Position numbers and translations under genes: made by a program | Source of the DNA: Eledone cirrhosa | Taxonomy: Eukaryota | DNA length: 64,000 nucleotides | Assembly (NCBI GenBank): GCA_964016885.1 | Contig: OZ024759.1 | Span: 36,518,001-36,582,000 of the forward strand | Direction: 5' to 3' | Part shown: in pieces, positions 10,101 to 63,955 of the stretch | How the letters are laid out: the number at the start of each line of letters is the position of its first letter | How positions within the stretch are numbered: position 1 is the first letter of the stretch | The notes under the pieces: generated by a model | What the model was told of the DNA's origin: nothing | Databases searched by the model: none | What the model saw: only the letters and a program-made list of their open reading frames with translations

Positions 10101-11292
10101 CCAGTTTAAATGCTAAAGGATTAAAATAATCACTGAGTGTTGGTTTAAATGCCTTACACAAGCAGGGGTCAACTACATGTTCACCTTTTAGTGACCAACC
10201 TGACCAAAACCCGCTCTGGTTCTATCAAATAAAACCACCCATTTTTAAAGGTTTCCAATTTAAATTAAAAAATCTTTCAATATAATTTTATATAAGAACT
10301 TTACATTAAGTTACTATCTTAGTAATGAAATAATTAATAATTTTAGTAAATCCCTCAAAATTCTTTATTAATTAATTGAAATAGAATGTATTTCATTAGA
10401 AATGTGGTAATGAAAAGGTTAAATTAATCATTGCTCTGTCTTCCAGCCAAGATTGCACAGGGCCATCAAAGCCAGTTGTTTTGTGGCCGAAGAAAAGGAA
10501 TTAGTTTTTGATATTGATATGACTGATTACGATGATGTAAGGAACTGCTGCTCGTAAGATTTTCCTCTCTCTTCTTACTTATTATACATTATTTTCTTCT
10601 TCTTCTACTTATTCATGAGAAGGTCATGGGGGTAGAGTCCTCAAACACTCCTTCAAATGGATGAAAAGCAACTGTCTCCAACTGATTCCGCTGGTTCCCC
10701 ATGTGAGACCAGCCATGCCCATGGATGTTATCCAACTATTTAAATGCTAAAGGTTTAAAGTTAGTTATTCAAGGGTGGATTGAATAGTTCATAGTTTAAC
10801 TATGAAGGAGCGATGTTAGAGCTGTGAAATATTGCATGCATTAAATTCAACTCTTATTAATAACTGCATTGTTTCTTTTAGGGACTATGTTGAAAAATAA
10901 ACTTCATTTGATCATTCCATGAGAGTATCTTGGTCAGCCTATGAACTTTTCAGCTGTCCCTTGTATAACTAAATCCCTTCAAATACTTTGAAAATTATTG
11001 ATACAGTCTTTTATTAGAAATATGGTAATGAAAGGTTTGAAGTTTTCTAATTTAATCTTAATTATTTGTATATAATTATTTTCCAAATGTTTCAGTGGTG
11101 CCCAGATTTGTAAGAAATGTTGGCCCTTAATGATTATAGCAATAAAAATCCTGGATAAAGCATTGAGGGGTAAGTTTCTCACTCCTTATATAATTATTGT
11201 TGTTTCTTTGACCCATAACTGGATTTATATATATATATATATCATCATCATCATTGTTTAACGTCCATCTTCCACGACACATATGTATATAT

Positions 11293-14854: not shown

Positions 14855-15897
14855 CAGTAGTTGTAGTAGTGGTGGTAGTAGCAGTAGTAGTAGTAGTGGT
14901 GATGGTGGTGGTGGTGGTAGTAGTAGTGGTGGTGGTGGTAGTAATAGCAGTAGTAGTAGTGGTAGTAGCAGTAGTAGTAGTGGTGGTGGTGGTGGTAGCA
15001 GTAGTAGTAGTATTAACCCTTTAGCATTTAAACCGGCCATATCCGGCCAGAATTCTTTCTGTTCAAACTGGCTTTAACTGGCCATTCATACTGATGTTAA
15101 GGTATAGTTCTCAAAATAAATGATATGAAAATCTCATAGATTCGATATTATGTGAGGTAAAGCCTTTACTGTGAAAATACAATAGTATATATAGAGTAAT
15201 GTAAATGTTATGTGAGGTAAAGCCTTTACTGTGAAAATACAATAGTATATATAGAGTAATGTAAATGTTATGTGAGGTAAAGCCTTTACTGTGAAAATAC
15301 AATAGTATATATAGAGTAATGTAAATGTTATGTGAGGTAAAGCCTTTACTGTGAAAATACAATAGTATATATAGAGTAATGTAAATGTTATGTGAGGTAA
15401 AGCCTTTACTGTGAAAATACAATAGTATATATAGAGTAATGTAAATGTTATGTGAGGTAAAGCCTTTACTGTGAAAATACAATAGTATATATAGAGTAAT
15501 GTAAATGTTATGTGAGGTAAAGCCTTTACTGTGAAAATACAATAGTATATATAGAGTAATGTAAATGTTATGTGAGGTAAAGCCTTTACTGTGAAAATAC
15601 AATAGTATATATAGAGTAATGTAAATGGTATGTGAGGTAAAGCCTTTACTGTGAAAATACAATAGTATATATAGAGTAATGTAAATGGTAAAGGGTTAAC
15701 AGCAGTGTATTTATAATTATTCAGAATTTCAGTTTCAGAACAAATTTTCTTCACTTCTTTCAGTGGTAGTAGTAGTAGTAGTGGTGGTGGTGGTAGTTGT
15801 AGAAGTAGTAGCAGTAGTAGGAGGAGGAGTAGCTGTAGTACTATTTCTGTATCTACTATCTCTCTTTCTCTCCTCCCCTCTTTTCTCTGTATGTATA

Positions 15898-15929
<32 letters not shown>

Positions 15930-18900
15930 GAAATTATTGTGTACAGTGCTCAGGTGCACTACAACTCATCAAAGGTGCATGTATAGTACATAGAATAATG
16001 TACAAATGTCAGGAAAATAAACAGTGTATGAGTCATGATATAATAACAATAACGAAATATTGTGCACAGTGCCCAGGTGCACCACAACTCATCAAAAAAG
16101 TGCATGTACAGTACATAGGGCAATGTACAAACATCAGTAAAATGAACAGTGCACGAGTCATGATACACACGTGTGCATGTGTATGGAAGGGGTACATCAG
16201 GTGTAGTTTTGGCGTATTTTGGGAAGCATGAGTGTCTTAAAGGATGCAGTGTCTCGGCAGCTAACAATTGACGCAGGCAGTTTGTTCCATGCTTCAGCAA
16301 CTCTGAGCGTGAAAAAATGTCTGCGAAAGTCATGGGAGCTGTGCTGTTTTCTTATCTTGTAGGCATGTCCACGTGTGTTAGACACATGGAGATCAAAGAG
16401 GCGCTCAGGGTTGCAGTTGGCGAGATGGTTAAAAACTTTGTGGGTATTCACCAAGTCCATTGCCAGACGTCGGAGCTTCAATGAATCCATGCCCAGGGAA
16501 GCAAGGCGTTCAGAGTATGGTAGGTGTCTGATGGAGGGTATGCGCTTGGTTGCACGTCTCTGAACAGTTTCCAGGAGGTCAATGTTCCGAGCAAGATAGG
16601 GGTTCCAGACTGATGATGCGAATTCCAAGTGTGGTCGCACCATAGCTGTATACAGTTTTAAATAGATGGCTGGAGAGCGGCTAACAAAGGTCTTGCTGAG
16701 TGATGCCAAGACACCCTCGGCCTTCTTGACAATCTTAGAGACATGCTTTGTCCAACGCAAATCGTTGCTGACAGTAATGCCCAGGTCACGTTCACAAGAG
16801 GACTTTTTGATGTCAGTGTTGTGGAGGGAGTATGTGGACGCTGGATTTTTCCTTCCAAAATGCATGGTGGTACACTTGTCCACAGCCAGCTTCAGTTGCC
16901 AGTCTGTGATCCATTGCTGCATTGTGTCCAGGTCTGATTGTAGGAAAGAGTTGTAAATTTCAGGATCAGTCCTTTTGATTTCAAGGTACAGCTTGATGTC
17001 ATCTGCATATTTTAGTACCGTGGCATTCTGTAAGTTGGCATCTATGTCATTAATATATGCCACAAACAAAAGAGGACCAAGAACAGATCCCTGTGGTACA
17101 CCAGATGACATCTCATATGGTGAAGAATGCTGTCCTAGAACCGTGACTACTTCCTTTCGGCTGAGAATGAAGGATTTCAGCCAGTCGAAAAGATCATCCC
17201 TCACACCCATTGCAGAGAGTTTTGCCATAAGTCTTTTGTGTGGCACAGAATTAAAAGCCTTAGCAAAGTCAAGGTAAACAACATCCACCCATGAGCCGCT
17301 GTCAGTGATCCGGGTGATGTCCTCAAGAAACTCGATAAGCTGATCACAGCAGCTGGAGTTAGGGATAAATCCAAACTGTGAGGGCCGGATGAGGCTGTGA
17401 GAGCTCCAGAAGTTCCAAAGTGTTTCTCTGACACAGGATTCCATCAGTTTGGCCATACAGCTAGTAAGACTGACTGGACGATAGTTGACAGGTGACATGC
17501 GGTTGCCCTTTTTTTTTTTATATATATTTGTGGGCATGTGTTTGTATATCACTTTAGCATTTACATTATTCTATATATATACTATTGTATTTTCATGGTA
17601 AAGGCTTTACCTTACTTAATATCTCACATAATATTGAATCTATGAGATTTTAATATTATTTATTTTGAGAACAATACCCTAACATAAGTATGAGGGGCCA
17701 GTTACAACTGGTTATGACCAGTTTGAACAGAAAGAGGTGAGAGAATTCTGGCCAGATATGGCTGGTTTAAATGCTAGAGGGATATTGTATATATTATATC
17801 TTTATATCTAACTCCATATAATATATATATTGTTTCAGGGTGTCCATGCTGGTCGAGTGTTGAAGGAGATTATGTTACAGTACTGCTACCCACGGCTGGA
17901 TATTAATGTGACTAAAGGGGTCAACCATCTACTAAAGTCACCCTTTAGTGTCCATCCGAAAACAGGTATGTTTCTTCTTTAACCCTTTAACATTTATATT
18001 ACTCTATATATACTATTGTATTTTTGTGGTAAAGGCTTTACCTCGCATAATATCGAATCTATGAGATTTTGATGTTGTTTATTTTGAGAACTATACCTTA
18101 ACATCAGTATGAGTGGCCGGTTACAGCTGGTTTGGACAGAAAGAGGTAAGAGACTTCTGGCCGGATATGGCCTGTTTAAATGCTAAAGGGTTGTACTGTG
18201 AAGTTTGTGGCCTAGTAGTAAGGCTGTTGAGATTCATAATCATTAGGTTGTGGGTTTGATTCTTAGGCTACTGTGTTGTCTTCTGCAAGATCTTTATGGG
18301 ACTAATCAGCCCATGTACACATGTACATAGGTGACAAAACTATGTTTCTGAAGTTAAGGGCCATATATAGATATACAAAATACATTATGTGTATATATAT
18401 ATATATATGTTGTATGGTTGCTAGGATGCGTCCAGAATTTCCTTCGAGGTCACTAGACTTGCGAATCCTGAGTCAGGTTTGATCCACAAACAGATCACAC
18501 CTCGAGCTGTTCGCCTGAGAAACAATTGTAATATGTAATAAATTGTGTTACCGATACATCACTTATTCTTCGTTTTCCATTTTATATATATATATATATA
18601 TGGAACAGCAACATCACAACTTACAATTCAGGACAAAATGAAAACACACACGCATATAGAATAAACAACCAACCAGTAACATGTAAATAAACGAATATAA
18701 ACACACACAGACACCCGGATGTAACACATGCGCAAACTAAGCACACAACACACACATAAAAACAAGATGGCGTAGGACAGAACAAAAAAAAAAAACAGGA
18801 AAGGCACAAAAACAAAGAAAAGAATCCCCACTCACTGAAGAGGTCACAGGATGTGTGACGAAAGAACTTTGACAATATATAAACAATCATCTGGTTGTGG

Positions 18901-21519: not shown

Positions 21520-24500
21520 CATACATATATATATATACATATATATATATACACATATATACATATACATACATATATATATACATACATACATACATAT
21601 ATACATACATATATACATGGTGGCTGCCAACTCGTTTTCGAGTACGGCCACTACTTTATATCCATATAGGAGAACCCCTACCGATGCGCTGAACGAGCGT
21701 GACTTTTTAGTCCAGCCAGCGACTTGAAAACTCTGGTACAAACACTACACTTGTGACAATTATTGACACATAGTGCTGGGCCCATGGTACCATGTGATGA
21801 CAAGTGCAGAGAGATCTCCAGATATAAAGCAATGCCTGTGCCGTGAAGCTTTTATAGTGAGCAAAGGCACTGCACAAAGCCAGTCCCACTCTCTTAACCA
21901 AGATGATATTTACCAAAAAGAAGAACAAATCAACATCATTGGATACCATCAGGGTTGCAGGTGTTATATCAGAGTTTTCCTTCTCCTAGAATTCTGCCTT
22001 GACAAAGGCTAAGGGGTCATCTCTCCCGGTGATTTTGGATGGCCATTGACTCTTAAGAGCTTCTTTGACAGGTTTTGTTTTTAGTCCTGCAGGATGTCCA
22101 AAGTCACCCTCCTCACCAAGATACCTTGGTGGGGTTGCCAGTTTAGTCGCCAACGACCCGACCATGAGGCAGGTTGTACTGGGATACATGTTACCAGTAG
22201 CACCAACTGGTGACCTGACATACATATATATATATATATATACACACACATACATACACACACATATATATATATTGAGTTTTAGATGAACCCGCTTAAG
22301 GTGAAAGCAGAAATTCATTGCTAATCTTACTAATAATAAATATATCATCATCATCATCATCATCATCAGGTTTAGCGTCCGTGTTCCACGCTTGCATGGG
22401 TTTGGACGGGGGTTTTCCCACTTGAGGCAAGAGTGGTTGTCTTGCTCGCATAGGACTGTCTGGCGGGTTTTCTACAGTTGGATGCCCTTCCTAACACCAA
22501 CCACATTTACAGTGTGGGGCTGGGAGGTTTTTACCGTGTTGCCTACACGGCCACATTACAGCGTGGACTGTCTGGCGGGTTTTCTACAGCTGGATGCCCT
22601 TCCTAACACCAACCACATTTACAGTGTGGGGCTGGGAGGTTTTTACCGTGTTGCCTACACGGCCACATTTACAGCGTGGACTGTGTGTTTTTTGTCGTGA
22701 CACCTACACGATCTCATTTGTTTCGGCCTGGATGTTGTGGGACCAACATAACTGTACATTGAAAGGGGCGGTGTGGATGGGGTGGAGGTGGTGGGACGGG
22801 GGGGTGTTTTGATAGAGATGCCTACTGACTGTAGTAGGTTTTTACTTTGTATTTAGGTAAGGCGGGTCTTCTCTATTACTGAGTACCGCCAAAGGTCTCG
22901 GTCCAGTGACATTGTCTTGGAGAGGTGTAAGCGTGTGAGGTCGGAATTTATCAGCTTGTCCCATGTTTTTCTGGGTCTGCCTACTCCGTGGCTACCGTCT
23001 ATCTTTATTGCCCTGCACTTTGTTATACAGCTGTCGTCTTTCATGCGCATCACGTGACCGTACCAACGTAGCCTTCTCTCGAGTAAACAACATCTGATCC
23101 CTCTTATTTCTAATTTTTTCCTTAGTTCGTTTATGCTTTGCCGTTCACGTATATTACTATTGCACATCCAGCGGAGCATGCAAGCTTCGTTCCTCTCTAG
23201 TCTGCGTATATCCTCTGCACACAATGCCCAGGTCTCACTGCCATGCAGCATTGCTGTTCGTATGCAGGCATCGTATAACCTGCCTTTCATTTTTAGGGAG
23301 AACCCTCTAGCGGCTAATAGTGGTATAAGCTCTCTGAACTTTTTCCATCCAGTTCTGACTCTAGCTACTGTACTTTCAGAGCACCCTCCCCCACTGCTGA
23401 TTTTGTCACCCAGGTAACGGAAGCTGTCCACTATTTCTATAGAACCCTCTGCGCAGTTGAAGGAGCTAGTATTTTGTGGGCACTTGCTGCTACTTATTGC
23501 ACCAGAGCACCGGCCACATGTAAAATCTATGTTCTTAGTTAGCTTACCTGTGATCCCACTACATCTTTTATGCACCCATACTTTGCATTTGGGACATAAA
23601 ATTGAGTTTCTACCTATATATATATATATATATATATAAACACATACATGCATACATATATATATACACACACATACATACACACATATATATATACAAC
23701 ACACACATGTATATGAAAAATACTGTCTTTCTCCTCAGGTCGTGTTTGTGTCCCAATAGATCCAACAGATGTCGAAAACTTTGATCCATTTGCTGTTCCC
23801 ACAATTTCGTAAGTAACAACTAAATACAACTTCAATACTTGTGTGTGGGACCTTGGGCAAGTATCTCTACGATAGCTTCGGTTTGACCAGTTTGGTAGAC
23901 AGAAGCTGTGTGGATGCTTTTCCTGTGCCACCATAAAATACATCCAGTACATACTGTAAAGCAGGGGTTGGCAATCTTTTCGGGTTTGTGTGCTTTATTG
24001 CTATGCTGTGTCTCGTCAGCAGGTCACATAGCTATACTGTGTCTCGTCAGCAGGTTACATAGCTATGCTGTGTCTCGTCTGTGGACCACATAGCTATGCT
24101 GTGTCTCATCTGTGGACCACATAGCTATGCTGTGACTCGTCAGCAGGCCACATAGCTATGCAGTGTCTCATCTGTGGACCACATAGCTATGCAGTGTCTC
24201 GTCTGTGGACCACATAGCTATGCTGTGTCTCGTCTGTGGACCACATAGCTATGCTGTGACTCGTCAGCAGGCCACATAGCTATGCAGTGTCTCATCTGTG
24301 GACCACATAGCTATGCAGTGTCTCATCTGTGGACCACATGGCTATGCAGTGTCTCATCTGTGGACCACATAGCTATGCTGTGTCTCATCTGTGGACCACA
24401 TAGCTATGCTGTGTCTCATCTGTGGACCACATAGCTATGCTGTGTCTCATCTGTGAACCACATAGCTATGCAGTGGCTCATCTGTGGACCACATAGCTAT

Positions 24501-26562
24501 GCTGTGACTCGTCAGCAGGCCACATAGCTATGCAGTGTCTCATCTGTGGACCACATGGCTATGCTGTGTCTCATCTGTGGACCACATAGCTATGCAGTGT
24601 CTCATCTGTGGACCACATAGCTATGCAGTGTCTCATCTGTGGACCACATGGCTATGCTGTGTCTCATCTGTGGACCACATAGCTATGCTGTGTCTCGTCA
24701 GCAGGCCACATAGCTATGCTGTGTCTCGTCAGCAGGCCACATAGCTATGCTGTGTCTCATCTGTGGACCACATAGCTATGCAGTGTCTCATCTGTGGACC
24801 ACATGGCTATGCTGTGTCTCATCTGTGGACCACATAGCTATGCTGTGTCTCGTCAGCAGGCCACATAGCTATGCTGTGTCTCATCTGTGGACCACATAGC
24901 TATGCAGTGGCTCATCTGTGGACCACATAGCTATGCTGTGTCTCGTCAGCAGGCCACATAGCTATGCTGTGTCTCATCTGTGGACCACATAGCTATGCAG
25001 TGTCTCATCTGTGGACCACATAGCTATGCTGTGTCTCATCTGTGGACCACATAGCTATGCAGTGTCTCATCTGTGGACCACATAGCTATGCAGTGTCTCA
25101 TCTGTGGACCACATAGCTATGCAGTGGCTCATCTGTGGACCACATAGCTATGCAGTGGCTCATCTGTGGACCACATAGCTATGCAGTGGCTCATCTGTGG
25201 ACCACATAGCTATGCAGTGGCTCATCTGTGGACCACATAGCTATGCTGTGTCTCGCCAGCAGGCCACATAGCTATGCTGTGTCTCATCTGTGGACCACAT
25301 AGCTATGCTGTGTCTCATCTGTGGACCACATAGCTATGCTGTGTCTCATCTGTGGACCACATAGCTATGCTGTCTCATCTGTGGACCACATAGCTATGCT
25401 GTGTCTCATCTGTGGACCACATAGCTATGCAGTGGCTCATCTGTGGACCACATAGCTATGCTGTGTCTCGCCAGCAGGCCACATAGCTATGCTGTGTCTC
25501 ATCTGTGGACCACATAGCTATGCTGTGTCTCATCTGTGGACCACATAGCTATGCTGTGTCTCATCTGTGGACCACATAGCTATGCAGTGTCTCATGTGTG
25601 GACCACATAGCTATGCTGTCTCATCTGTGGACCACATAGCTATGCAGTGTCTCATCTGTCGACCACATAGCTATGCTGTGACTCGTCAGCAGGCCACATA
25701 GCTATGTTGTGTCTCATCTGTGGACCACATAGCTATGCGGTGTCTCGTCAGCAGGCCACATAGCTATGTTGTGTCTCATCTGTGGACCACATAGCTATGC
25801 TGTGTCTCGTCAGCAGGCCACATAGCTATGTTGTGTCTCGTCTGTGGACCACATAGCTATGCTGTGTCTCGTCAGCAGGCCACATAGCTATGTTGTGTCT
25901 CGTCAGCAGGCCACATAGCTATGTTGTGTCTCATCTGTGGACCACATAGCTATGCTGTGTCTCGTCAGCAGGCCACATAGCTATGTTGTGTCTCGTCTGT
26001 GGACCACATAGCTATGCAGTGTCTCGTCTGTGGACCACATAGCTATGCAGTGTCTCGTCTGTGGACCACATAGCTATGCAGTGTCTCGTCTGTGGACCAC
26101 ATAGCTATGCAGTGTCTCGTCTGTGGACCACATAGCTATGCAGTGTCTCATCTGTATTTGCTAGATAAAGCAGTTAGTACACTCCTGGTTAACTCAACCA
26201 TAGGGGAGTTTGGGACAATATAATAATGAAATACACACACATAATATATATATATATGTATATACTATAAGAATAAAGGAACAAAGAGTCAGTGTTGCAT
26301 CATAACATATTTAATTACATATGTTTCACTGTCAATCAGCTCAAGGGACGATCTATTATTGATCGAACCTGACTCTGGAATTGAAAGATCCTCAGATATG
26401 CCTCCGTATGTGATCTCGTTTCAGATTCTTTCATACATCTACATATATATATACACACACACACACCGATCCAGACGTATATTATTATTGTCTGGGATCC
26501 AGAAACCTTTGGTAATATTTTGTGTTGTTCACTTTCTAATTAAATATATATATATATCTATG

Positions 26563-33099: not shown

Positions 33100-33951
33100 C
33101 GGTCGCCCATTCTCGCTCTTTTACATCTCCGTATGATAGGCGCGTAACAAGTGGCTGTGATTTGAGGAAGTTGAGAAACAGCTGTGAAAGACATCCAATC
33201 AGAAGAGGCGTCTTTGGAATATGAAGGGAAAAAAATTAAAGAGAGAGAAAAAGAAGTAAAAAAAGTAACGTGTTAATGCTGCTCGTGGTGGTGACGACGA
33301 CGAGGAAGGCGGCGGCAACCTCTACCACAAGAAGAAGGCGACGGCGGTGGCGAATTCTACGATAAGAAAGAAGGCGGTGGCGGCGTTGATGACGACCTTT
33401 ATGACAAGGGGGCGGTGACGGTGGTGTTGTTGCATGTGTTGAAGGAAAGATAACTCTTGCCTTACTTAACAACACAGTGTTAGTCTCAGCCAAGTCAGCC
33501 ACTTACTCAGTCCACTATTGTTCCAAGCATCCCCACATGGGGGTTTGACCCGAGACGTTTTTTTTGGCACGAAAATAATCATTTAAAATATATATATACT
33601 ATTTTTTTTTTTTAGTATGCCTCCTGTGACAACAATCATTGCGATTATCTGAATTAGGATTAAGCAAGAAAAAAATAACTAAACTGCAAAAAAAAGAAAG
33701 CTCCCCCACCGAATGGACAATATATATATAGTTGGACATTTAAAAAGAAAATTTTTTCTCTGTATGTATCGTTAAGAAATTAATTTGTTCTTCCTCCTCT
33801 GCGGTTTAAAAGAAAATTATATAAGATAGAAATATCTATATTGATATAAAAACCAATATATATATAATATATAGTTTATATATTATCACAAAATCCAGCT
33901 AAGAGAGATTGAGAAAGGCGCATCATTCGAAAAAAAAAAATCTTAACCGCC
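33100..33951 (+). promoter_or_regulatory. Probable KPNB1 promoter / 5' UTR region
   Basis: CpG-enriched GGCGGC-rich patch at 33285-33425, CCAAT near 33195 and Kozak-like GCCATGG at 33949-33955. The TSS cannot be determined from sequence. Confidence 0.45.
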
Positions 33952-39836: not shown

Positions 39837-42800
39837 GAGAGAGAGATAAAGCATGTATGTATACATATAGTTATAATGCATGTATGTGTGTAGATATATA
39901 TATGTACGTGTGTATGCATGTTGCTGCTGATTCATTTGGTGTTGGTGCAGACATTAGGAGATATATGGGGGGGGGGGTAGTTAGTGACCAACAAGTACAA
40001 TGATCACAGCTACTAAACAGCATTAAGGCTGCTGTGGAATGTCCTGTCCCCTAATCAGGTAACTATATACAGGGTGAGGCAAAAGTTGAGCACCATATAA
40101 CAATTTAATAACTAGTAAATAAAATTTTCATGTGTAATACTTTTAATAGATTATCCCTATGGTGCGTGACTTTTGCCTCACCCTGTGTCATCATCATAAT
40201 TTAATGTCCATTTTCCTCGCTATGAGACAAGTCGGGTCCAGAGACCACATCATGCTTATACAGATCTGTATTTTGGCTTGGTTTCTACAGCTGGATGCCC
40301 TTCCTAACGCCAACCACGTTATAAATATTTAGTAAAACTTCAAAACGAGTCAGTCAGTGGGTCTTCAAATATTCCATCCCATTAGCCCCAGTCCAATAGT
40401 ATAAAACATGTTAGCGAAATGAAATTTATAGGTTTCTCTGTTTAATAAAAGGGACCCCAGTCCTATCACACACGCATATATATATGTTACAGCTCACGCC
40501 TATATAAGTATAGCTGGGTTCCTAGGAGGTTGTATCTCATAGGTTTTTCAGTTGTTTTAAATATAGTAGCCCTGTCCTCTCATGGTTGTATTTCACGTTT
40601 TTCGGGTGTTTTAATGATAGTGGTCCCAGGCCTATCATGAAAAGGCAATGTGAAATAAATTCTTGCTCAAGAGCACAATGAAATTCATGCTCTCACCCTA
40701 ACCACTAGGTCATGTGTCTTGTAGTATTTATATTAGTAATGGAATAAGCAATTGTTTAGACTACTATAAATATTTAAAATATTTTTCAGAACATCTGTTG
40801 AGTCAGTGTTGTATGGATCAGTACATGGACCCTGATACAAGCACTTGGCAAGAGACTAGATGCTACATACTCTACAATACTTAGGGTTGTACAAAACAAA
40901 CTGACATCAATGTATTAGAAATGAAAGTTTATATGGAAACTTGCCCAAGATAATGACTACAATTGCTCAAAGATGGTTATGATTTGCAGGACATTTCTGG
41001 AGAAGTATGTAAGAAGTTATACACAAGTTACTATTGTGGGAACCAACTCACAGAAGACCTGCTCAAACTTTCATTAGTCAACTCTGACAATACGGGAATT
41101 GGAGACTTTGTCAGGAATGTTCAACTGTGGTCGCAATGATGATATTACTATAAATTCCTGTAATTGTTGCTTGTGATTTTTGAATTCTGTTTCAGATTCT
41201 GTAGCTTTTACATCATGGTGTCTGACTTAGTTTTTGTCAAGTCTCTGGTGGCTTTGATCTTTCCATATTGTTGTGAGAGCAGGACTCTTACAGCCGACAT
41301 GGAGGGAAGAACTCAGGCATTCAAGCACAAGTGCTTCAGAGGTCTGCTACACAGCTTTGACAGGCAGCAAGTCAACAAATATGTTGATAGAACCATTCCT
41401 TATGATGGTGAAAAGACAGCTCACCTGGTATGGTCACATATCCCGCCATACTTCAGACCACAGTTGAGGGTGGGTGTAGAAGCTAAAGAAAAAAATCCCG
41501 GTCTGACATCACACTGGACAGGTCACAACGCTGTGGCCCTTCTATTTTACACATGACAGAGGGTAGACCAGTCAGTTTGACTGACTGACTACCTGTTGTG
41601 GGAACTTGATGATTGCTGTAAGGTTTAACATGATTTGTGTTGATAGAATGGGATGTGGTAGAGATTGAATATAAACAGTTGCAGTAGTCATCATCATGGG
41701 ACCACGGTGGAACATTCCTAACAAAGTCTCTTCCAATTCACGATTTTCCATTGCTCCTAGTAACTGCTCCCTACTGAGTTTTGTATTGGCTGAGGGTTCG
41801 AGCAGGTCTTCTCTACCGTCTCTCCCATAAGCTGGTTCCCACGGTAGCTTATGTATAACTTCCTCTATTGTCTCCCATGAGTTGATTCCCACAATAGTAT
41901 CTTGGGTATAACCTGACTGCTTCTCCCATAAGTTAGTTCCCACAATAGTATCTTGTGTTTAACTTTCTCTACTGCATTTCCCATAAGTTGGTTCCCACAA
42001 TAGTAGCTTGTGTATAACTTCCTCTATTGTCTCCCATGAATTGGTTCCCACAATAGTAGCTTGTGTATAACTTCCTCTATTGTCTCCCATGAATTGGTTC
42101 CCACAATAGTAGCTTGTGTATAACTTCCTCTATTGTCTCCCATGAATTGGTTCCCACAATAGTAGCTTGTGTATAACTTGACTGCTTCTCCCATGAGTTG
42201 GTTCCCACAATAGTAGCTTGTGTATAACTTCCTCTATTGTCTCCCATGAATTGGTTCCCACAATAGTAGCTTGTGTATAACTTCCTCTATTGTCTCCCAT
42301 GAATTGGTTCCCACAATAGTAGCTTGTGTATAACTTGACTGCTTCTCCCATGAGTTGGTTCCCACAATAGTAGCTTGTGTATAACTTCCTCTATTGTCTC
42401 CCATGAATTGGTTCCCACAATAGTAGCTTGTGTATAACTTCCTCTATTGTCTCCCATGAATTGGTTCCCACAATAGTAGCTTGTGTATAACTTGACTGCT
42501 TCTCCCATGAGTTGCTTCCCACAATAGTAGCTTGTGTATAACTTGACTGCTTCTCCCATGAGTTGGTTCCCACAATAGTAGCTTGTGTATAACTTCCTGC
42601 TTACTTCTGCTTTGTCCTGCAAATCAGTAGTTGTTAAAATGTATGATGTTGAACTATTAGAAATATTACTTACTGTGGAAGATAACTTGATCAAAGGACG
42701 ACTCAGTACGAGGCAGGAAAGCCTGCTGATGTTGGTTTATTGTTAACATTAACGTGATTAATTCTTATTGTCCAGCATTGCCACAGTAATAAGACTAGGA

Positions 42801-45800
42801 AAGTACAAAATAGTACTATGGCTGTATCACATTAAAAATTAGTCTTTAGTCTAATGCTGCAAATGTTCATAAGCTGTCTACTAGTAAAGATACCATAAAC
42901 ATTTGAATTATAAACCACATGAAACATTAACAAGACATTCTTGAAATGTATGAAATATCACTAGAATTACATCACATTAAAAATTAGTCTTTACTTTAAT
43001 ATTGCAGATTTTTCACAATGATCTGTCCTGTAAATTGTCTGCCTTTTAAGGCCATTTTATTCACCTTATGACACACATGAGTATTGTGAACATACTCTAA
43101 ACTGGTACATCTTTGTTATAACCCTTTCATTACCATATAGTGACGTGCATGCAATTTCAATTAGTTAAGGAAGAATTTGAAGAGATTTACTAAAATGATT
43201 TCAATAATGTTCTGATACCAAATTATGTTTGATGGTTTCAGTTTAAATGGTAGCCATTTAAACTGGCTATATCCAGCCAATTCTCTCGCCTCTTTCTCTT
43301 CAGACTGGTCGTAACCAGCCACTCATACCAACGTTAAGGTATTATTCTCAAAATAAATATCAAAATCACATAGATTCAATATTATGTGAGGTAAAGCCTT
43401 TACTGTGAAAATATAGTATATATAGAGTAGTGTAAATGGTTAAGATGGATGGCTTGGTTTCATAGAACCAGTCAGTTTTGGTCAGGTTGGTATCAAGTGT
43501 TTTAAAAAAAAATGTTTGCGAAAATTTCCTTACTTTTTACATCATTTTAAAATGTATTTTCTCTGACTTTTCCAGCCTGAGCTATTAAAGAAATTATCAG
43601 ACATCTTAAAACATGGAGGGAACAGCCCAGTGGCCCGTATGCAAGCTGGTCTACAGCTTAAAAATGCCGTTTATTCCAAGGACCCCGCAATCAAGACAAC
43701 TTACCAGCAGCGATGGCTCCAGTTCACTGAAGAAATACGAGTATATATAAAGAAAAATGTAAGTTTAATTTCTTTTGTTACTATATCTCTAACAAAGTGT
43801 ACCAACAATAGCTGGAGGTTTAACCCTGCAATGAACTGATGTCCTGTCCGGTGGAGGACTCTTGTATTCTCAGTCACTTCACGTCATGGAACCAGGATAA
43901 GCACCAGCCTAACGAGCCTTCTGACAGACTTTTAGATCTTTAGTGTATGAAGGGATTGTTGGGGTGGTGGTGAAAATATTAATGTGGCAGCTACATTCAT
44001 GTGTAAAGTGTGTATGGAGCTAGATGAAGAGGATGTTGAGCAGGATCTTGGGAATGGTGTGGAAGGTTTACCTTTAAGATATGTTGGAGAGGGTGGATCA
44101 GACTCTGTAACAGTATCTAGAGTGAGTTGTGCATGGAAGATGTTCCGGGGACCGAGTGGTGTACTAATGAGGAGGGGGTGTTGTTGAAACGGGAGGGAAT
44201 AGTGTCTGCCTTGTGTGTGATAAGTGAGATAATTTATGGGTGGTGAACATGGAACAGCAGAGAATGCTGCGGAGAAAGGAAATGAGAATGGATCTGTGTG
44301 TAGATGAGTAGAGTATTGCTGAGAGTGAGAGGAGGACAAAGTATGAATTGCAGAGAATGATGGGAAGAGTAGAACCAGTGATGAGAAAAGGAATGAAATG
44401 GTTGGGTCATGGGGTAGAATGAAGAAAAACATAGCTGGGGGTAATTGTTTCTAGTTTTGGCACAAGGCCAGCAATTATCCCCAGTGCATTACTGGTGCTT
44501 TATTTTATCGATCCGGTAAGGATGAAAGGCAAAGTTAACTTTGGCGGGAGGCCAGGGGTTTGGTGAGATGTGCAGCTGATTGTGAAAATGAATTAGCTTG
44601 TCATGGGGCCTGCAAGGATAGCCCTTCCTTTAACAGGGAAAAACTGCCTTTAAAATGTTTGCTTTTGTTTACATATATATTGTTTTTATTTGTAGGTATT
44701 GGAGTCGTTAGGGACGGAGACAATTCGTCCAAGCTCTGCAGCCCAATGTGTAGCATATATTGCTTGTGCTGAACTTCCCCAAGGGTTCTGGCCAGATCTT
44801 ATTCCTTTGTTAACGCAAAATATTACCAATCCTAGCAGCACTGAACTAACAAAAGAAGCTACCTTAGAGTCTATTGGTTATATTTGCCAGGATATAGTAA
44901 GTTATTTAACCCTTTCATTACTATATTTCTAACTATTTGCCAGGATATAGTAAGTTATTTAACCCTTTCATTACTATATTTCTAACTATTTGCCAGGATA
45001 TAGTAAGTTATTTAACCCTTTCATTACTATATTTCTAACTATTTGCCAGGATATAGTAAGTTATTTAACCCTTTCATTACTATATTTCTAACTATTTGCC
45101 AGGATATAGTAAGTTATTTAACCCTTTCATTACTATATTTCTAACTATTTGCTCCGATATAGTAAAATATATCGTTATTGTATGCATAGTTAAAATTTTA
45201 AATTAAAAAATATTTACTTTTCCAGGAACCAGAGATATTGGCATCACAATCTAATGAAATTTTAACAGCAATTGTAAATGGGATGCGCAAAGAAGAATCA
45301 AGGTGCCAGATACTGTTTTTATTTTTATACATTTTTAGGAGGTTTAAAATAGTTTAACTATTGCATTAGACTACAAATGATTTCCAATTAATTTTGAAGA
45401 AGCAAGTCGACTCATATAAGGTCAGCTAAACTTGCATAAGTATGAGCTGTAAATTTCATATAATTTTTTATTTTTCTTCTGTTAAATGTTTTTAATATTT
45501 AAATGTTTTCATCTCTTTCAGTAATCATGTTAGATTAGCTGCTACAAATGCTCTTCTGAATTCTTTGGAGTTCACAAAGACAAATTTTGATAAAGATGTA
45601 AGTATAAATCTATATATCTATACTTTTATGGTTTGGTTTATTTTTTAATATTTTCTTATGAAATACAATCTGGCCAAGTGCATTAATCTTTATGCCAAAT
45701 TGCAACTGACAAGTTTCTGTCCATATTAGGAACTATATTAATTAACCCTTTAGCATTTAAACCGGCTGTATCCGGCCAGAATTCTCTTGCCGTTTTCTGT

Positions 45801-48800: not shown

Positions 48801-51800
48801 CAGACCTAAAATCTACCATAAATATAGTGTACGTATGTATATACGCATACAAGGTTTGTCCCAAAAGGACGGGTACTGATTTTCCTGTGGACATGTACGA
48901 CATGGTAACGTAGCACCTCAGTGATGTATACAGGCATGTTGGTTATGACCTTGGCTGCATGTACACACTTGTTTCAACATGATCAGTTGAGTCAGTTGTG
49001 AGTTATTGCTGTTTATGTACAGATGTGTTTATAACCTCTGTTATGTTTGCAATGTAGGAAAATATCGAACAATAGCACGTGATAAAATTTTGTGAAGAAA
49101 GTCAACAAATCTGCTACCACTGTAACATTCCAAGGGTCGTATTTTGAAGGAAATAACTTGTAATTTCATAAACATCTGATATAATACATTTAAACCGACT
49201 ATATTTGGCCAGAATTCTCTTACCTCTTTGTTCAAACCAGCTGTAACCGGTCGCTCATACTGATAAGGTATTGTTCTCAAAATAAATAACATCAAAATCT
49301 CAGATTCGGAATTATGTGAGGTGAAGCCTTTACTGTGATAATATATTAGTATATATAATGTAAATGCTAAAGGGTTAAATAAGACATCAGTACCCTTACT
49401 TTTGGGACAAACCTCATAGATACATATGTAGATACATTTATATATATTTACACACACGCACAAATTTGTACAGGCATGATCAATCATCAAATCCATATAG
49501 AAAGGTTTGTCTTATAATTCCCCCCCAATAGATGCTATGAAAGTGTTTATGTTCTGTTTTTTTATCATTTTTTAGTGATGCCAATTTTAATCATTTTAAT
49601 CATCCACTCTATAATCTCACATAACCAAATTGTTTTATTTTTTAAGGCTCTTATCAATAGGTTGTGTATTTCATGTGTTTGGCATGGTTTGTCAAGCTGG
49701 ATGCTCATGTTAGTGTGGACTGGGTGTAGTTTATTGTCACCAGCACTAGGGAGGGTGTCATGACACAATTTAAGAATTTGTTCTACCATATGTATGGCAA
49801 CTTTTCTGTGACTGGGTACCATTCCGGTGGTATTACCAGCCACTTAACAGTACTGGGTTGTTTTATTGTCAACAACATACGTTATTATTTTGACACATCT
49901 GAAGTCCTTTCACCGTCTCTCTGGGTTGATTTCTAAAGCTCAATACCCTTATGACAAACCTCTATAGGATATAATGGGTGAGTTTTTCTTGGGGAATTAG
50001 CTCAACTGGGAAATCACTCGCTAAGCACGCAAGAGGTATTGGGATCGATTTTCAGACTATCTAGCGAGTTATAAATCTTCTTTTTAAAGCAGTACTCCAA
50101 CATGGCCACAATCTAAGAAATGAATTAGTTTACTCTGAACAACCTGTAATGATTTAGCATAAAATAATCTAAAACGGGTTTAATTCAAATGTTTATAGTA
50201 TCTTTACTAGTGGACAGATGGTTGTGAAGATTTGTAGTATTCTTAGTATCTTGGGATTATTTGCAGAATGCCTTGCTAATGTGGTTTTTCCTTTTGTTGA
50301 AAGTTCTTGCACTCAATGTCTATGCAAACAAGAAATTTACCCTTTAAAGTTCTGTACCTCGTGAAACCACATTAGCAAGGCATTTTTGAAAACTACAAAG
50401 CTACACCGACTGCATCACATTAAAATTAGTCTCCGCTCTAATACAAAACTTTTCCCCACTTATGTCATCCAGTAAAGATATAAACATTTGAATTAATAAA
50501 CCCATGTTGAAAAAGCTTTTGCTAAATCACTACAGAAGAATTAAGGCAGTGCCCCAGCATGGCCACCATACAATGATAGAAACCAATAAAAGAATTATGA
50601 ATTAGGCCAATTAAATTTAAGAAATAGTTTACATGTGAATATAAAACTGGTTCAGGGAGGTGCCCCAGCATGACCATAGACTGAAAACAGTATGAATTAA
50701 TTTTCTTGAGACAGTTTTAAAGATACAAATGAAGCTTCTTTAATGCAATGCCCCAGCATGGCTGCAGTCTAATGGCTGGAATTTGAATTATTAGGACAGT
50801 TTTGTTAGGTTAAGAAACTGTTTTTCCAGATACGAATGAAGCTGGTTTTTAAGTAAGGCATGAGTGGACTTCTTTTCCTTTTTTTTGTTTTGTGAGTTGT
50901 TGCACTATACGTTTGCTGTTTGTGTGTGTTTGCAGGAAGAGTTTGATGATGATGAGTGGAACCCATGTAAGGCGGCTGGTGTGTGTTTGATGCTGATGGC
51001 CACTTGCTGTGAGGATGACGTTGTAGGTCATGTCCTCCCTTTTGTCAAGGAACATATTGTCCATACAGATTGGCGCTTTAGAGACGCTGCTGTCATGGCC
51101 TTTGGTAGGCATTCTCATTTATCCATTGATAAAACTTCAAAATCCATAAATTTTTTTTAAAAATTTTTTTATTCTTCCATAATTTAACCCTTTTGGTACC
51201 AAACTGGAACTGCCTCTTTTTAAGATACCTAAAAAAAAAAAAAGAACCTTCAATCATTTTTATATAAACACCTTAAAGTTGTACTAACACCAGCCTAACC
51301 CTTTAGCATTTATACTGGCCGTGTCTGGCCAGAATTCTGTTCAAACCAGTTGTAACCAGCTGCTCATACTGATAAGGTATTGTTCCCAAAATAAATATCA
51401 AAATTCCATAGATTTGATATTATGTGAGGTAAAGCCTTTACCATGAAAATACAATAGTATATATAGAGTAATATAAATGCTAAAGGGTTACTAATGAGAA
51501 GGTTAGTAATTTCACTAGATTCTTACAAATTTTTGATTATTTCCAAAACATAGGCAGTGTCATTCATTAGAAATATGGTAACGAAAGGGTTAACTATTTT
51601 ATTGCCAGTTAATTCTAAATATTTTAAACATTTTTCTTTGTTTTGTTTTTAACCTTCATAGGTAGACATTCATTAGAAATATGGTAATGAAAAGGTTAAA
51701 ATGAAGAGCCTAGTATCTTAAAACAAGGGTCATTTTCAGGCAGTTTGGTATGAAAAAGGTTTGATTGAAATAATGGTTCATGTTTGGTGTTATTCCTTAA

Positions 51801-61300: not shown

Positions 61301-63932
61301 GGCTAAATGGTTTTGCTCAACGTGTGGTTTTTGTCCATACTGAGCTTGCCTTGGAACACCTGTGTTACCCTTTGACAGTCAAACTCCCCAACCAACTGTT
61401 CTCAACTAAGGATTGCACATCTGGTATTTTTATCATATTTGCACCTTTTTATTTTTTAACCATTTTGTTGTTTTTGTTTATAGTTTTTTCTTTTTTTTTT
61501 TCTTTTCTTTTCTTTTCTAGACTGACTATGATATGATAGATTACTTAAATGAACTGAGGGAAGGCTGTTTAGAAGCTTACACTGGCATTGTGCAAGGTTT
61601 GAAAGGAGATGCTGAGCAAATCAATCGTAAGTTTATACCTTTAGCCGTTACATTATTATATTTACTGAGAAAATTGCTGGCCTTGTGCCAAAAGTAGAAA
61701 CAATTATATTTTCATGGGAAAGTCTATCTCACATAATATGGAATCTACAACATTTTCATGTTATTTATTTTGGAAACAATATCTTAATGTAAGTATGAGT
61801 GAGCGGTTTGAATAGACAGGTGAGAGAATTCTGGTCAGATATGGCCAGTTTAAATAAATGCTAAAGGGTTAAACCTCATTCATGCCTTTTCGGGTGTTTT
61901 CTCAAATTGAATATAAAATTACAAAATAGAAATAATTTACCTACTTACATCTTAATGGGAAGAATGGTTTGGTACACAGGTTCTTAAATAAAATTAAATG
62001 GAAGGTGGTTTTTTTTTTATTTTTTTTTTTTTTTTACACTTGAACCCTTCTGTTGCCAAATTTCTAATTCAAGGGATTGCTTATGGTTTTCAAATGCTTT
62101 GGAAAATATTCAAGAATTTGGAGGTGGTGTAGTAATTATTATTAAGCTTGTGTTTAAAATATAACTTATTTTCATAAATAGAATTTTGATGGAATATTTA
62201 AAATCAAGTATAAACAACTGAAAATAAGCAGTTTTTTCTTTTCACAAATAATATACTTCCTTCCTGCTCACCACTATCGGGACACAGTTGGCCACCTACA
62301 GAATTGAACCTTGCAAATTGGAAAGGCTATTTCAACACGTCTCCCTTGCTACCCTCTAGGTTAATGCTTTCTCCATTCTGTCTGCTAAGACCACAAGGTA
62401 GCTTGTGCCTGGGGTTCTGCTTGCCAGAGAATGTTCTCTCACACCCTCTCGGTAGCATGGGTTAGACAAGTTGTCTTGTGAGCAATGCTAGGTCAGAGAT
62501 TCTGGCTTGGTTTCTATAGCGGGATACCCTTTCTAATGCCAACGTCGTCTTACTAATCTAGATACAAAAGTATATTCCCAGAGTTAAAACTAGGAGTGTT
62601 GGTATTTAACCAGATTGTGTACTCCAAGAATTACTTGTAATTTTCTGTGAATTGTTTTTGTCTTTCAGCTGATGTCAATCTCATTCAACCACATGTTGGA
62701 CACATGATCTCCTTTATAGAACATATAGCTCAAGATGAAGACCACAGCGATAGCAATATAGCAGCTTGTTGTGGTTTAATAGGGTAAGTTGACACATTTT
62801 GGGGGAGCTGTAATATAGATGTTTGTGGTTTGATCCTTTCATGGCCGCCGCATTTCTAATGAATTACATTTTAATTGATTAATGAAGAATTTTGAGATTC
62901 GCTGAAATTATTATTTCATAACTTAATGTAAGGTTCTTATATTGAATTATGTAGAAAGATTTTAACCCTTTAGCATTTAAACCGGCTGTATCCGGCCAGA
63001 ATTCTCACCTCTTTCTGTTCAACCAGCTGTAACCGGCAACTTATATTAAGGTATTGTTCTTAAAATAAATATCAATTTCAGATTCGATATGATGAGTTAT
63101 GTATGGTAAAACCTTTAATATGGAAATATATAGAGTAATGTAAATGTTAAAGTGTTAATTTAAATTGGAAACTTTTAAAATGGGTGATTTTTATTTCATA
63201 GAACCAGGGCCGTTTTTGGCTGGGTTGGTAAAAGGTTAAAATAAATAAACAGCAGAATCAAATATTGATGCACTTTCGTATCATTTTCTCTTGACAATAG
63301 AAATTTTACCTCTAAGTGATTTGCAACACTTCATGATCATAGAATAGAGGCTATGGAATATTCAACCGTTCATTAAAAATAAAGAACACAAAACAAAATC
63401 ATCGTTTAACGTTCATCTTCCACGCTAATATGGTTAGGACAGGCTGTCCCTTTGTGAGAGATCAGGTCAGGGGACCGTGATTCGCTCACATAGAACTGAT
63501 TTTGGCTTGGTTTCTACGGCTGGATGCCTCTCCTAATGCCAACCACATCAGTCTGTGCTGGGTGCTTTTTGATCACTTTTGGTAGAGGTTCGAATTTTAC
63601 TGAAAGTGCATTTCTGGGATGTTTCAATGTTGCCTTTACTTATTACTGGTTCATATCCCCTCGATGAAGGCCGCAGGCTAATTAGCAGAATTGTTAGATC
63701 GTTTGATATGATGCTTTGCTGTATTAATTACCAAATTTGACTGGATTTTTATTTTTTTTTGTCTTGCAGTGATCTCTGTGCTGCATTTGGTGCTGCCATG
63801 GTGCCATTTGTTGATAAGGAATCCATACAAGCTCTGTTAACGAAAGGTCGACGCTCTAAGGTATCTAAAGCGAAAACACTAGCAAGTTGGGCAACTAAGG
63901 AGATAAGGAAATTAAAGAATGCATCTTGGTAA
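33952..63932 (+). CDS. KPNB1: Importin subunit beta-1 (karyopherin beta 1), 23 coding exons, 876 aa + TG (whole-gene span)
   Basis: All 23 exons join in frame (2630 nt to 63928) and are colinear with importin beta from [12 protein letters not shown] through [15 protein letters not shown] to [16 protein letters not shown]. Confidence 0.97.
35206..35264 (+). CDS. KPNB1: KPNB1 exon 2
   Basis: [19 protein letters not shown]. Confidence 0.94.
36680..36863. mobile_element. Tc1/mariner-type MITE
   Basis: Inverted ends AGGGTGTATAACTTTTCA / TGAAAACTTATACACCCT. Confidence 0.65.
41810..42598. repeat. 51/53-bp satellite (TTGGTTCCCACAATAGTAGCTTGTGTATAACTT..), about 15 copies, inside a dispersed repeat
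   Basis: Tandem copies; single-unit relatives at 7375-7440 and 40985-41070(-). Confidence 0.93.
43576..43758 (+). CDS. KPNB1: KPNB1 exon 3
   Basis: [39 protein letters not shown]. Confidence 0.96.
43935..44430 (+). mobile_element. Old degenerate RTE LINE fragment
   Basis: [30 protein letters not shown] parallels copy A; frameshifted. Confidence 0.6.
44696..44896 (+). CDS. KPNB1: KPNB1 exon 4
   Basis: [39 protein letters not shown]. Confidence 0.97.
44881..45145. repeat. Five perfect 53-bp tandem copies spanning the KPNB1 exon 4 / intron 4 junction
   Basis: Units start at 44881, 44934, 44987, 45040 and 45093. Confidence 0.97.
45226..45302 (+). CDS. KPNB1: KPNB1 exon 5
   Basis: [25 protein letters not shown]. 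Confidence 0.95.
45522..45597 (+). CDS. KPNB1: KPNB1 exon 6
   Basis: [25 protein letters not shown]. Confidence 0.96.
46268..46327 (+). CDS. KPNB1: KPNB1 exon 7
   Basis: [20 protein letters not shown]. Confidence 0.96.
47273..47362 (+). CDS. KPNB1: KPNB1 exon 8
   Basis: [30 protein letters not shown]. Confidence 0.97.
48017..48127 (+). CDS. KPNB1: KPNB1 exon 9
   Basis: [37 protein letters not shown]. Confidence 0.97.
48613..48714 (+). CDS. KPNB1: KPNB1 exon 10
   Basis: [34 protein letters not shown]. Confidence 0.97.
48850..49418. mobile_element. Mariner-like MITE with a nested piggyBac-type MITE (about 49190-49378)
   Basis: Inverted ends AGGTTTGTCCCAAAAG..GTACTGAT / ATCAGTAC..CTTTTGGGACAAACCT. 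Confidence 0.7.
50936..51104 (+). CDS. KPNB1: KPNB1 exon 11 (acidic loop)
   Basis: [40 protein letters not shown]. Confidence 0.97.
52988..53232 (+). CDS. KPNB1: KPNB1 exon 12
   Basis: [35 protein letters not shown]. Confidence 0.97.
53305..53540. repeat. ~46-bp minisatellite (ATATTACTGGTACATCTATTACCTCCC..), 4-5 copies
   Basis: Tandem copies visible in the sequence. Confidence 0.85.
54093..54226 (+). CDS. KPNB1: KPNB1 exon 13
   Basis: [26 protein letters not shown]. Confidence 0.96.
55324..55399 (+). CDS. KPNB1: KPNB1 exon 14
   Basis: [25 protein letters not shown]. Confidence 0.96.
56397..56468 (+). CDS. KPNB1: KPNB1 exon 15
   Basis: [24 protein letters not shown]. Confidence 0.96.
57046..57117 (+). 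CDS. KPNB1: KPNB1 exon 16
   Basis: [24 protein letters not shown]. Confidence 0.97.
58140..58287 (+). CDS. KPNB1: KPNB1 exon 17
   Basis: [32 protein letters not shown]. Confidence 0.97.
59162..59244 (+). CDS. KPNB1: KPNB1 exon 18
   Basis: [27 protein letters not shown]. Confidence 0.96.
59776..59883 (+). CDS. KPNB1: KPNB1 exon 19
   Basis: [36 protein letters not shown]. Confidence 0.96.
60883..61026 (+). CDS. KPNB1: KPNB1 exon 20
   Basis: [38 protein letters not shown]. Confidence 0.97.
61521..61626 (+). CDS. KPNB1: KPNB1 exon 21
   Basis: [30 protein letters not shown]. Confidence 0.97.
62669..62783 (+). CDS. KPNB1: KPNB1 exon 22
   Basis: [37 protein letters not shown]. Confidence 0.96.
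63770..63932 (+). CDS. KPNB1: KPNB1 exon 23 (ends at 63928 if TG|GTAAGT is spliced, or at TAA 63932 if read through)
   Basis: [34 protein letters not shown]. Confidence 0.94.
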
Positions 63933-63955
63933 GTTATTATTTTGAAATAATCCTG

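Follow-up and report, generated by a model that had tools for sequence, protein, structure and literature searches.

In the 64-kb window, by which we mean the whole stretch of DNA that was analysed, the end of exon 4 of KPNB1 (importin beta-1) is repeated in tandem together with the beginning of intron 4, and five identical splice donors lie one behind the other. This array is a real, recent and lineage-specific exon-boundary minisatellite, and we consider it probable that the first donor is spliced to position 45226 and that the four later copies are silent or nearly so. For this reading it is established that the array exists, that DNA contigs assembled from reads contain it, that two relatives are free of it and that the main transcript shows no interior of a unit. 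The probable meaning is another natural tandem-donor case, in a mollusc, with the first donor winning. Its origin is datable because two relatives keep the single-copy state, and the array adds to a pattern already described in genes of humans and amphioxus.

The array consists of five identical 53-bp units (44881..45145, plus strand) with starts at 44881, 44934, 44987, 45040 and 45093, each joining 16 nt from the end of exon 4 to 37 nt from the start of intron 4. The authentic donor GTAAGT (ATA/GTAAGT; 44897..44902, plus strand), present as a single copy in the two relatives B and D, scores 8.6 bits in a matrix built from the other 21 donors of KPNB1, and identical pseudo-donors GTAAGT follow at 44950, 45003, 45056 and 45109. 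The five tandem, identical exon-4 donors at 53-nt spacing that a preliminary description had reported can be read directly from the window letters, and the same holds for the order CTAAC, AG, GATATA and GTAAGT that it had noted at each junction with a spacing of 47 nt. The junction AGs end at 44943, 44996, 45049 and 45102, and adjacent donor-AG pairs span mini-introns of 47 nt. The first junction makes up the candidate acceptor CTAAC-TATTTGCCAG together with a 6-nt GATATA (44929..44949, plus strand; acceptor 1.2 bits); further copies of GATATA are located at 44997-45002, 45050-45055 and 45103-45108. Directly behind the fifth unit lies a degenerate sixth start, a copy of exon end and donor (45146..45165, plus strand) which has lost the AG (CAG to TCC) and carries a weakened donor (GTAAGT to GTAAAA). 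It matches the unit at 17 of 20 positions, compared with a best self-match of 13/20 across the other 21 introns. The region of this copy (45155-45175) contains a 7-bp inverted repeat of its own, CGATATA / TATATCG, which may be a trace of fold-back synthesis or due to chance. Use of a distal donor with the mini-introns retained leads to a stop at codon 173, caused by the TAA in unit 1 to which the description had drawn attention; insertion of one to four GATATA preserves the reading frame. Two points absent from that first reading are the degenerate sixth start and the fact that donor 1 can be paired with junction AGs 2 to 4 across introns of 100, 153 and 206 nt, and the onward introns after these AGs measure 223, 170 and 117 nt.

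The gene itself is intact. Translation of the window gave an open frame of 23 coding exons and 877 amino acids, and 868 of the 877 residues are identical to isoform X1 from Octopus bimaculoides, which makes the animal an octopod near Octopus. The top homologue comes from Argonauta hians and clusters with the Octopus vulgaris and O. bimaculoides proteins; a protein of this species is not among the ten members of the 90% protein cluster. Exon 4 (44696..44896, plus strand, 201 nt) comprises codons 95-161 and ends with Gln-Asp-Ile, and a search against solved structures placed its translation on importin beta-1 residues 97-161 (E 2e-27). Exon 5 is located at 45226..45302 (plus strand): a transcript contig matches from exactly 45226 and splices to exon 6 (45522). 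Between the degenerate copy and exon 5 the remainder of intron 4 (45166..45225, plus strand) carries the true acceptor TTTTCCAG with 9.3 bits. The 22 introns of the gene range from 219 to 8311 nt. The donor of intron 5, AAG/GTGCCA (45303-45310), has the lowest score of the 22 (-4.3 bits), and the transcript contig uses it anyway. At the other end of the gene the stop codon overlaps a donor-like TG/GTAAGT (63926-63936); the Octopus isoforms differ solely in a final Trp, which fits an alternative use of this site. Six of the 121 importin-beta homologues with both anchors (P0015, P0023, P0055, P0090, P0103 and P0018) have one to six extra residues exactly at the exon 4-5 junction. These are arthropod and mollusc proteins, and tandem acceptors are a probable source of the additional residues.

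As the preliminary description had already considered, an array of this kind could be an artefact of the assembly. The units are 100% identical, and the DNA run X1 possibly derives from the very sample behind the assembly, which both fit such an origin. Logan contigs from four of 23 listed runs (X1, X4, X5 and X7) were matched to 45070-45720, a stretch with one full unit and one junction. In a window graph with k=31 a single unit yields no branch, and two or more units produce a branch with its exit at 45123, along with a piece (45070-45122) that contains the junction only. Run X1 bears the same species label; its single-copy contig breaks off precisely at 45123, at a depth of 13.3, and the junction bin 45070-45091 reaches a depth of 46.1, a ratio of 3.47 where 4 is expected. 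The junction is represented here by its bin depth, its own contig lying beyond the matches listed. Summed contig depth is no copy number as such, and the ratio was compared with simulations that assume a read length of 150 nt. The simulated mean ratio was 3.0 for alleles with 4/4 units, 3.5 for 5/4 and 4.1 for 5/5; out of 1500 simulations, 3.47 was reached by 2/2 alleles in 0% and by 3/3 alleles in 0.7%. The observed value, from one DNA sample of the species, is compatible with 4/4, 5/3, 5/4 and 5/5 alleles. Since read-derived DNA contigs hold both the branch and a 3.5-fold junction depth, which the simulations give with 4-6 units per allele and almost never with 2 or 3, an artefact is refuted as far as the presence of the array is concerned, and we give this explanation a practically negligible probability. 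The presence of the array in genomic DNA is firm, the exact number of units is not.

Evidence on splicing comes from run X5, which has the same species label and another sample code. This one run provided a transcript contig of 3678 nt with a depth of 51. In the matches listed it covers 45226-45300 and 45520-45597, joined by GT..AG between exons 5 and 6. The contig represents spliced RNA because exon 5 joins exon 6 across the GT..AG gap. The depth of X5 is 0 at 45070-45091 and at 45158-45223, and among the matches listed there is neither a joint of a unit to 45226 nor a contig with a unit junction. If donors 2-5 were in use, a 39-nt match would be expected in X5, and joints with sides of 21 nt were detected in other runs. 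Without the interior of a unit and without a joint of a unit to exon 5 in X5, neither read-through to a distal donor nor intron retention is the main form of KPNB1 in this run. The share of words in X5 was 0.31, and 0.27-0.33 is predicted for the exons alone. Upstream of exon 5 the contig comprises 1186 nt, consisting of 483 coding nucleotides and 703 nucleotides of UTR, with a start near 33249, where the G+C content climbs from 0.41 to 0.50. This length fits a normal transcript, at a resolution that lies above 6 nt. The listed matches give the letters of this contig from 45226 onwards, the 16-nt anchor in exon 4 is too short to be placed, an insertion of 6 nt is beyond the reach of contig matches, contigs drop rare forms, and NMD would deplete forms that bear a stop. 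Altered splicing of KPNB1 was not seen in this one transcript set, with rare forms and the 6-nt insertion outside its reach.

These properties of contigs bear on the explanation that donors 2 and 3 are used in a sizeable share of the transcripts, that NMD removes the products and that the copy number thereby lowers the dosage of KPNB1. Five identical strong donors of 8.6 bits would allow such leakage, the distal forms all end at the stop in codon 173, contigs would under-represent them, and in the minisatellites of CBS and 6-16 the next two pseudo-donors are also used, as described in PMC1557585. Against it stand the X5 matches listed, which include no unit junction and no joint of a unit to exon 5, and the minigenes of human F7, in which identical downstream donors failed to compete according to the same source. 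We regard substantial leakage as unlikely. For the favoured reading, in which the first donor is used and the later ones are silent or nearly so, the following mechanism can be proposed. As in the F7 repeat of humans, the first donor would be encountered first and is the sole one adjoining an exon 4 of full length. Transcripts that occasionally use a later donor would stop at codon 173 and be eliminated through NMD. The AGs at the junctions would be too weak and too near to the donors for use, and the stem that is predicted to cover each donor with its GATATA may deepen the silence. The precedents and spacing rules behind this proposal stem from mammals or amphioxus, none from a cephalopod.

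The preliminary description had gone further and suggested that the 47-nt mini-introns may be excised singly, which would release up to four Asp-Ile microexons as an ongoing intron gain. The GT..AG ends and the frame are correct for this, and splicing is documented for human introns of 43, 49 and 56 nt (PMC4463651). However, 12 of the 22 candidates listed in that source are G-rich, as are most validated ultra-short human introns, whereas the mini-intron is AT-rich. In the mini-intron the branch-like CTAAC precedes the AG by 12 nt and follows the donor by about 35 nt (or by 35 and 12 nt), and both arrangements fall outside the human spacing rules, for which PMC12081236 gives more than about 45 nt from donor to branch and 17-50 nt from branch to AG. 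The shortest real intron of KPNB1 measures 219 nt, and a figure for the minimum intron length of cephalopods did not appear in the literature search. The release of four microexons through 47-nt introns thus fails the human spacing rules and falls below the minimum of the gene, and we judge it highly improbable; the caution in the same description that 47 nt may be too short to splice is backed by these rules.

A single 6-nt Asp-Ile microexon, included in some tissue, probably neurons, would need only an upstream intron of 100-206 nt and a downstream one of 117-223 nt. The TTAAC of a transposon-like element would serve as branch point, and the isoform would carry an exon 4-5 junction of the type GATATAGATATAGAACC. 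These lengths satisfy the spacing rules: when the upstream intron measures 100 nt, the branch A of TTAAC lies at -35 and donor 1 is 66 nt away from it. The candidate is 6 nt long, preserves the frame and is closed by the strong donor GTAAGT (8.6 bits); together with an AG exclusion zone of 40 nt and a TGC at -6 to -4 it resembles eMIC/SRRM exons, if faintly. One to six extra residues occur at the same junction in 6 of 121 homologues, and the contig data of X5 are compatible with such an exon. Opposed to this, the acceptor reaches 1.2 bits in a matrix from the other acceptors of KPNB1, compared with 9.3 for the true acceptor (a score as low occurs in 1 of 22 real acceptors, one as high in 8% of 1352 intronic AGs), and its pyrimidine tract is interrupted by an A. 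The TTAAC branch point has an intact donor 12 nt before it, the TGC sits within the acceptor core, and GATATA is predicted to be paired (0.01 unpaired). Finally, Asp-Ile-Asp-Ile is found in none of the 121 importin-beta homologues with both anchors (129 were fetched, 8 were without an anchor). We therefore rate inclusion of this microexon in any tissue as improbable. Equally doubtful is the broader proposal that a single duplication across the donor made a complete neural microexon, which at least three units (introns of at least 100 nt) render spliceable, and that the repeat number switches the importin-beta isoform. The transposon end would provide the TTAAC branch point, the exon end the UGC, the AG and the 6-nt Asp-Ile, and the copied GTAAGT would close the exon. 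If inclusion were true, the birth of a microexon would have been caught in one mutational step, with all signals and in an essential gene.

We additionally analyzed the RNA structure around the donors. In each unit ATATAGTAA lies across the donor, and 26 nt further on the element end carries its exact 9-nt complement, TTACTATAT. According to the prediction, a stem (44890..44928, plus strand) pairs 44890-44900, the exon end and donor, with 44918-44928 in the element end; it comprises 11 pairs with a calculated energy of -7.4 kcal/mol at 37 C. The stem is repeated with each unit, and pairing to the donor that follows is possible as well. A perfect complement of the donor of at least 7 nt within 80 nt was found in intron 4 alone among the 22 introns, and relative D carries both arms of the stem without change. 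At equilibrium each of the five donors is predicted to be masked (0.02-0.03 unpaired vs a median of 0.27 for KPNB1 donors), and 20 of 100 shuffles of the unit masked donors 2-5 equally. In folds of RNA prefixes donor 1 was predicted to be slightly freer (0.06-0.17 vs 0.01-0.04), a gap that was as large in 9 of 100 shuffles. A selection of donor 1 by RNA structure was not supported: the stem alone does not pick this donor, because all donors are masked and some of the shuffles do likewise. The stem may have helped the slippage that generated the array.

The 3′ part of this stem belongs to a 27-nt end of an abundant element with inverted repeats and TTAA flanks (44906..44932, plus strand), which is present in every unit and predates the array. 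Relative B shares this end up to the equivalent of 45134 and relative D up to the equivalent of 45147. Six more copies with at least 22 of 27 matches occur in the window (including those at 10422, 51593 and 51699), and none at this threshold in 30 Markov resamples. In the family copy at 51184-51593 (410 bp) positions 51576-51593 pair with 51184-51201 in an 18-nt inverted repeat with 89% identity, and TTAA is present at both ends. By its sequence the element holds as MITE-like, TTAA-flanked and with terminal inverted repeats; these copies and the inverted repeat confirm the end of a TTAA-type MITE that had been described in the unit, with family members at 10394-10422 and 51566-51699. TTAA followed by a CCC start is a trait of piggyBac elements. 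The intron-4 fragment has kept one end, and its partner end was not found in the tail of the intron. For O. vulgaris, PMC13282606 lists both PiggyBac and MITE classes.

Several further repeats were observed in the window. The 410-bp element contains a nested copy of another family (51296-51490), and a second copy of its right end follows at 51673-51699. The start of intron 3 (43766-43793) holds a decayed copy of the element end (20/27) just behind the donor, and the copies in introns 3 and 4 share TACTATAT and CTAAC variants; the likeness of the two intron starts ranks joint second among 231 intron pairs and is not exceptional. Two near-perfect arrays at 9448-10025 (72 bp x 8) and 15148-15687 (60 bp x 9) start just inside the ends of another TTAA family. 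An open frame on the minus strand (16290-16811) gave a chance tblastn match; it presumably resembles the end of a LINE reverse transcriptase. Tandem arrays are common in this window: 20 with a period of at least 20 cover 9032 of the 64000 bases, and random placement of the five arrays of KPNB1 covered a donor in 74% of the trials. Another array with a period of 53 lies in KPNB1 intron 2 (41844-42602; 14 copies, higher-order periods of 157 and 210 bp) and is unrelated in sequence. Long satellites are located at 13-2626 (28 bp, 90 copies) and 24000-26155 (31 bp, 70 copies).

The age of the array can be estimated from the two relatives. Relative B (run X4) yielded one contig of 928 nt which leads from the end of exon 4 through to exon 5 and contains no array; exon end, donor and element start are matched over 42 nt (to 45134), and the contig rejoins the window at 45217. 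The contig of relative D (run X7) runs through 45093-45147 with 0 other letters and 3 gap letters and continues for 63 nt more. Both relatives lack the array, because an array would break such contigs, and both have a single donor with the element end directly behind it. The duplication, which had been proposed to be very recent, is lineage-specific, being absent in 2 of 2 relatives examined. The degenerate sixth copy was also considered as the ancestral donor and was rejected, as relatives B and D have GTAAGT and the element end right after exon 4. For 45158-45179 neither relative has contig cover, which is itself weak evidence and weakly suggests an origin of the degenerate copy within this lineage. 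Apart from the 3-letter gap, relative D has the first 39 bases of the intron (45109-45147) unchanged, whereas 10 of 128 positions differ in a piece close by; the chance of 0 differences in 33 is 1-6%. In relative B the match ends after 45134.

From these data a series of three steps can be proposed. A TTAA element would have inserted 9 nt behind the donor before the split of the three species. Subsequently this lineage would have lost most of the element, and 53 nt downstream an imperfect copy (20 nt) of the exon end would have appeared; alternatively, an older duplication may have left the degenerate copy as its decayed boundary unit, in the manner described for the mirage clusters of amphioxus. 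Misalignment of this copy with the exon end, resolved within the shared TATTTGC, would then have amplified the unit.

The array shows the features of exon-boundary minisatellites: the units span the exon-intron boundary and repeat the splice signal, the array is present in genomic DNA, and the inner units 1-5 are homogeneous with a degenerate boundary unit (17/20). The closest human counterpart described in PMC1557585 is the 37-bp VNTR of F7 intron 7, with 5-9 units and tandem identical donors, of which the most upstream alone is used; in F7 minigenes the most upstream functional donor wins (Borensztajn et al. 2006, PMC1557585). As in F7, the first unit of the KPNB1 array spans the exon-intron boundary and the donors are identical and in tandem. 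The F7 unit includes 4 exon bases, whereas the KPNB1 unit includes 16, among them an AG six bases before the donor, and donor use was tested with 50 constructs in F7 and with contigs in KPNB1. The minisatellites of LMNB2 and PDGF intron 4, with the first donor only, and those of CBS intron 13 and 6-16 intron 2, with the first donor plus the next two, also reiterate donors according to PMC1557585, but they have 10-25 units. The leaky donor use of CBS and 6-16 was not seen in the KPNB1 contigs.

In amphioxus, minisatellite-like duplications of intron-exon boundaries with normal splicing have been described as 'mirages' in Adh3, globin, TnC and PGBD5 (PMC3087553); they vary in length and have degenerate boundary units (PMC3087553, PMC3902484). 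Like these, the KPNB1 array is an invertebrate boundary duplication with AG/GT signals and a degenerate boundary unit. In contrast, it was found in a cephalopod rather than a cephalochordate, and its unit includes a transposon-like end. A similar comparison can be made with the microexons that depend on eMIC/SRRM3/4 in neurons, which are characterized as tiny, with a weak acceptor, a UGC near the AG and, further back, a strong branch point and pyrimidine tract (bioRxiv 10.1101/2024.09.17.613571, 10.1101/2021.02.24.432780). The KPNB1 candidate is likewise tiny and in frame, with a strong donor, a weak acceptor and a UGC near the AG, but it differs from them in having no strong upstream pyrimidine tract and no conservation.

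Intron gain after the model of Rogers is described as tandem duplication of a coding, exonic AGGT, with a new intron of more than about 60 nt, which leaves the protein unchanged (Hellsten et al. 2011, PMC3265369), and human repeats at exon borders can create new introns (De Grassi and Ciccarelli 2009, PMC2812944). As in this model, tandem duplication has put a donor and an AG into a new order in KPNB1. However, the duplicated piece spans an existing donor, 37 of its 53 nt are intronic, and AG and GT are 6 nt apart; neighbours are separated by 47 nt (100-206 only by skipping units), and splicing would add Asp-Ile. The KPNB1 array is not an intron gain of the Rogers type. The view of the array as a snapshot of intron gain is a loose fit: the duplication with donor and AG agrees with it, its extent across an existing donor and its mostly intronic content do not. 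The idea is also not new, since mirages were already proposed in PMC3087553 as a seed of new exons and introns. A search of open-licence papers revealed no exon-boundary minisatellite from a cephalopod and no microexon born by such a duplication. Taken together, these comparisons indicate that the KPNB1 array is likely a clean but ordinary case of a known oddity.
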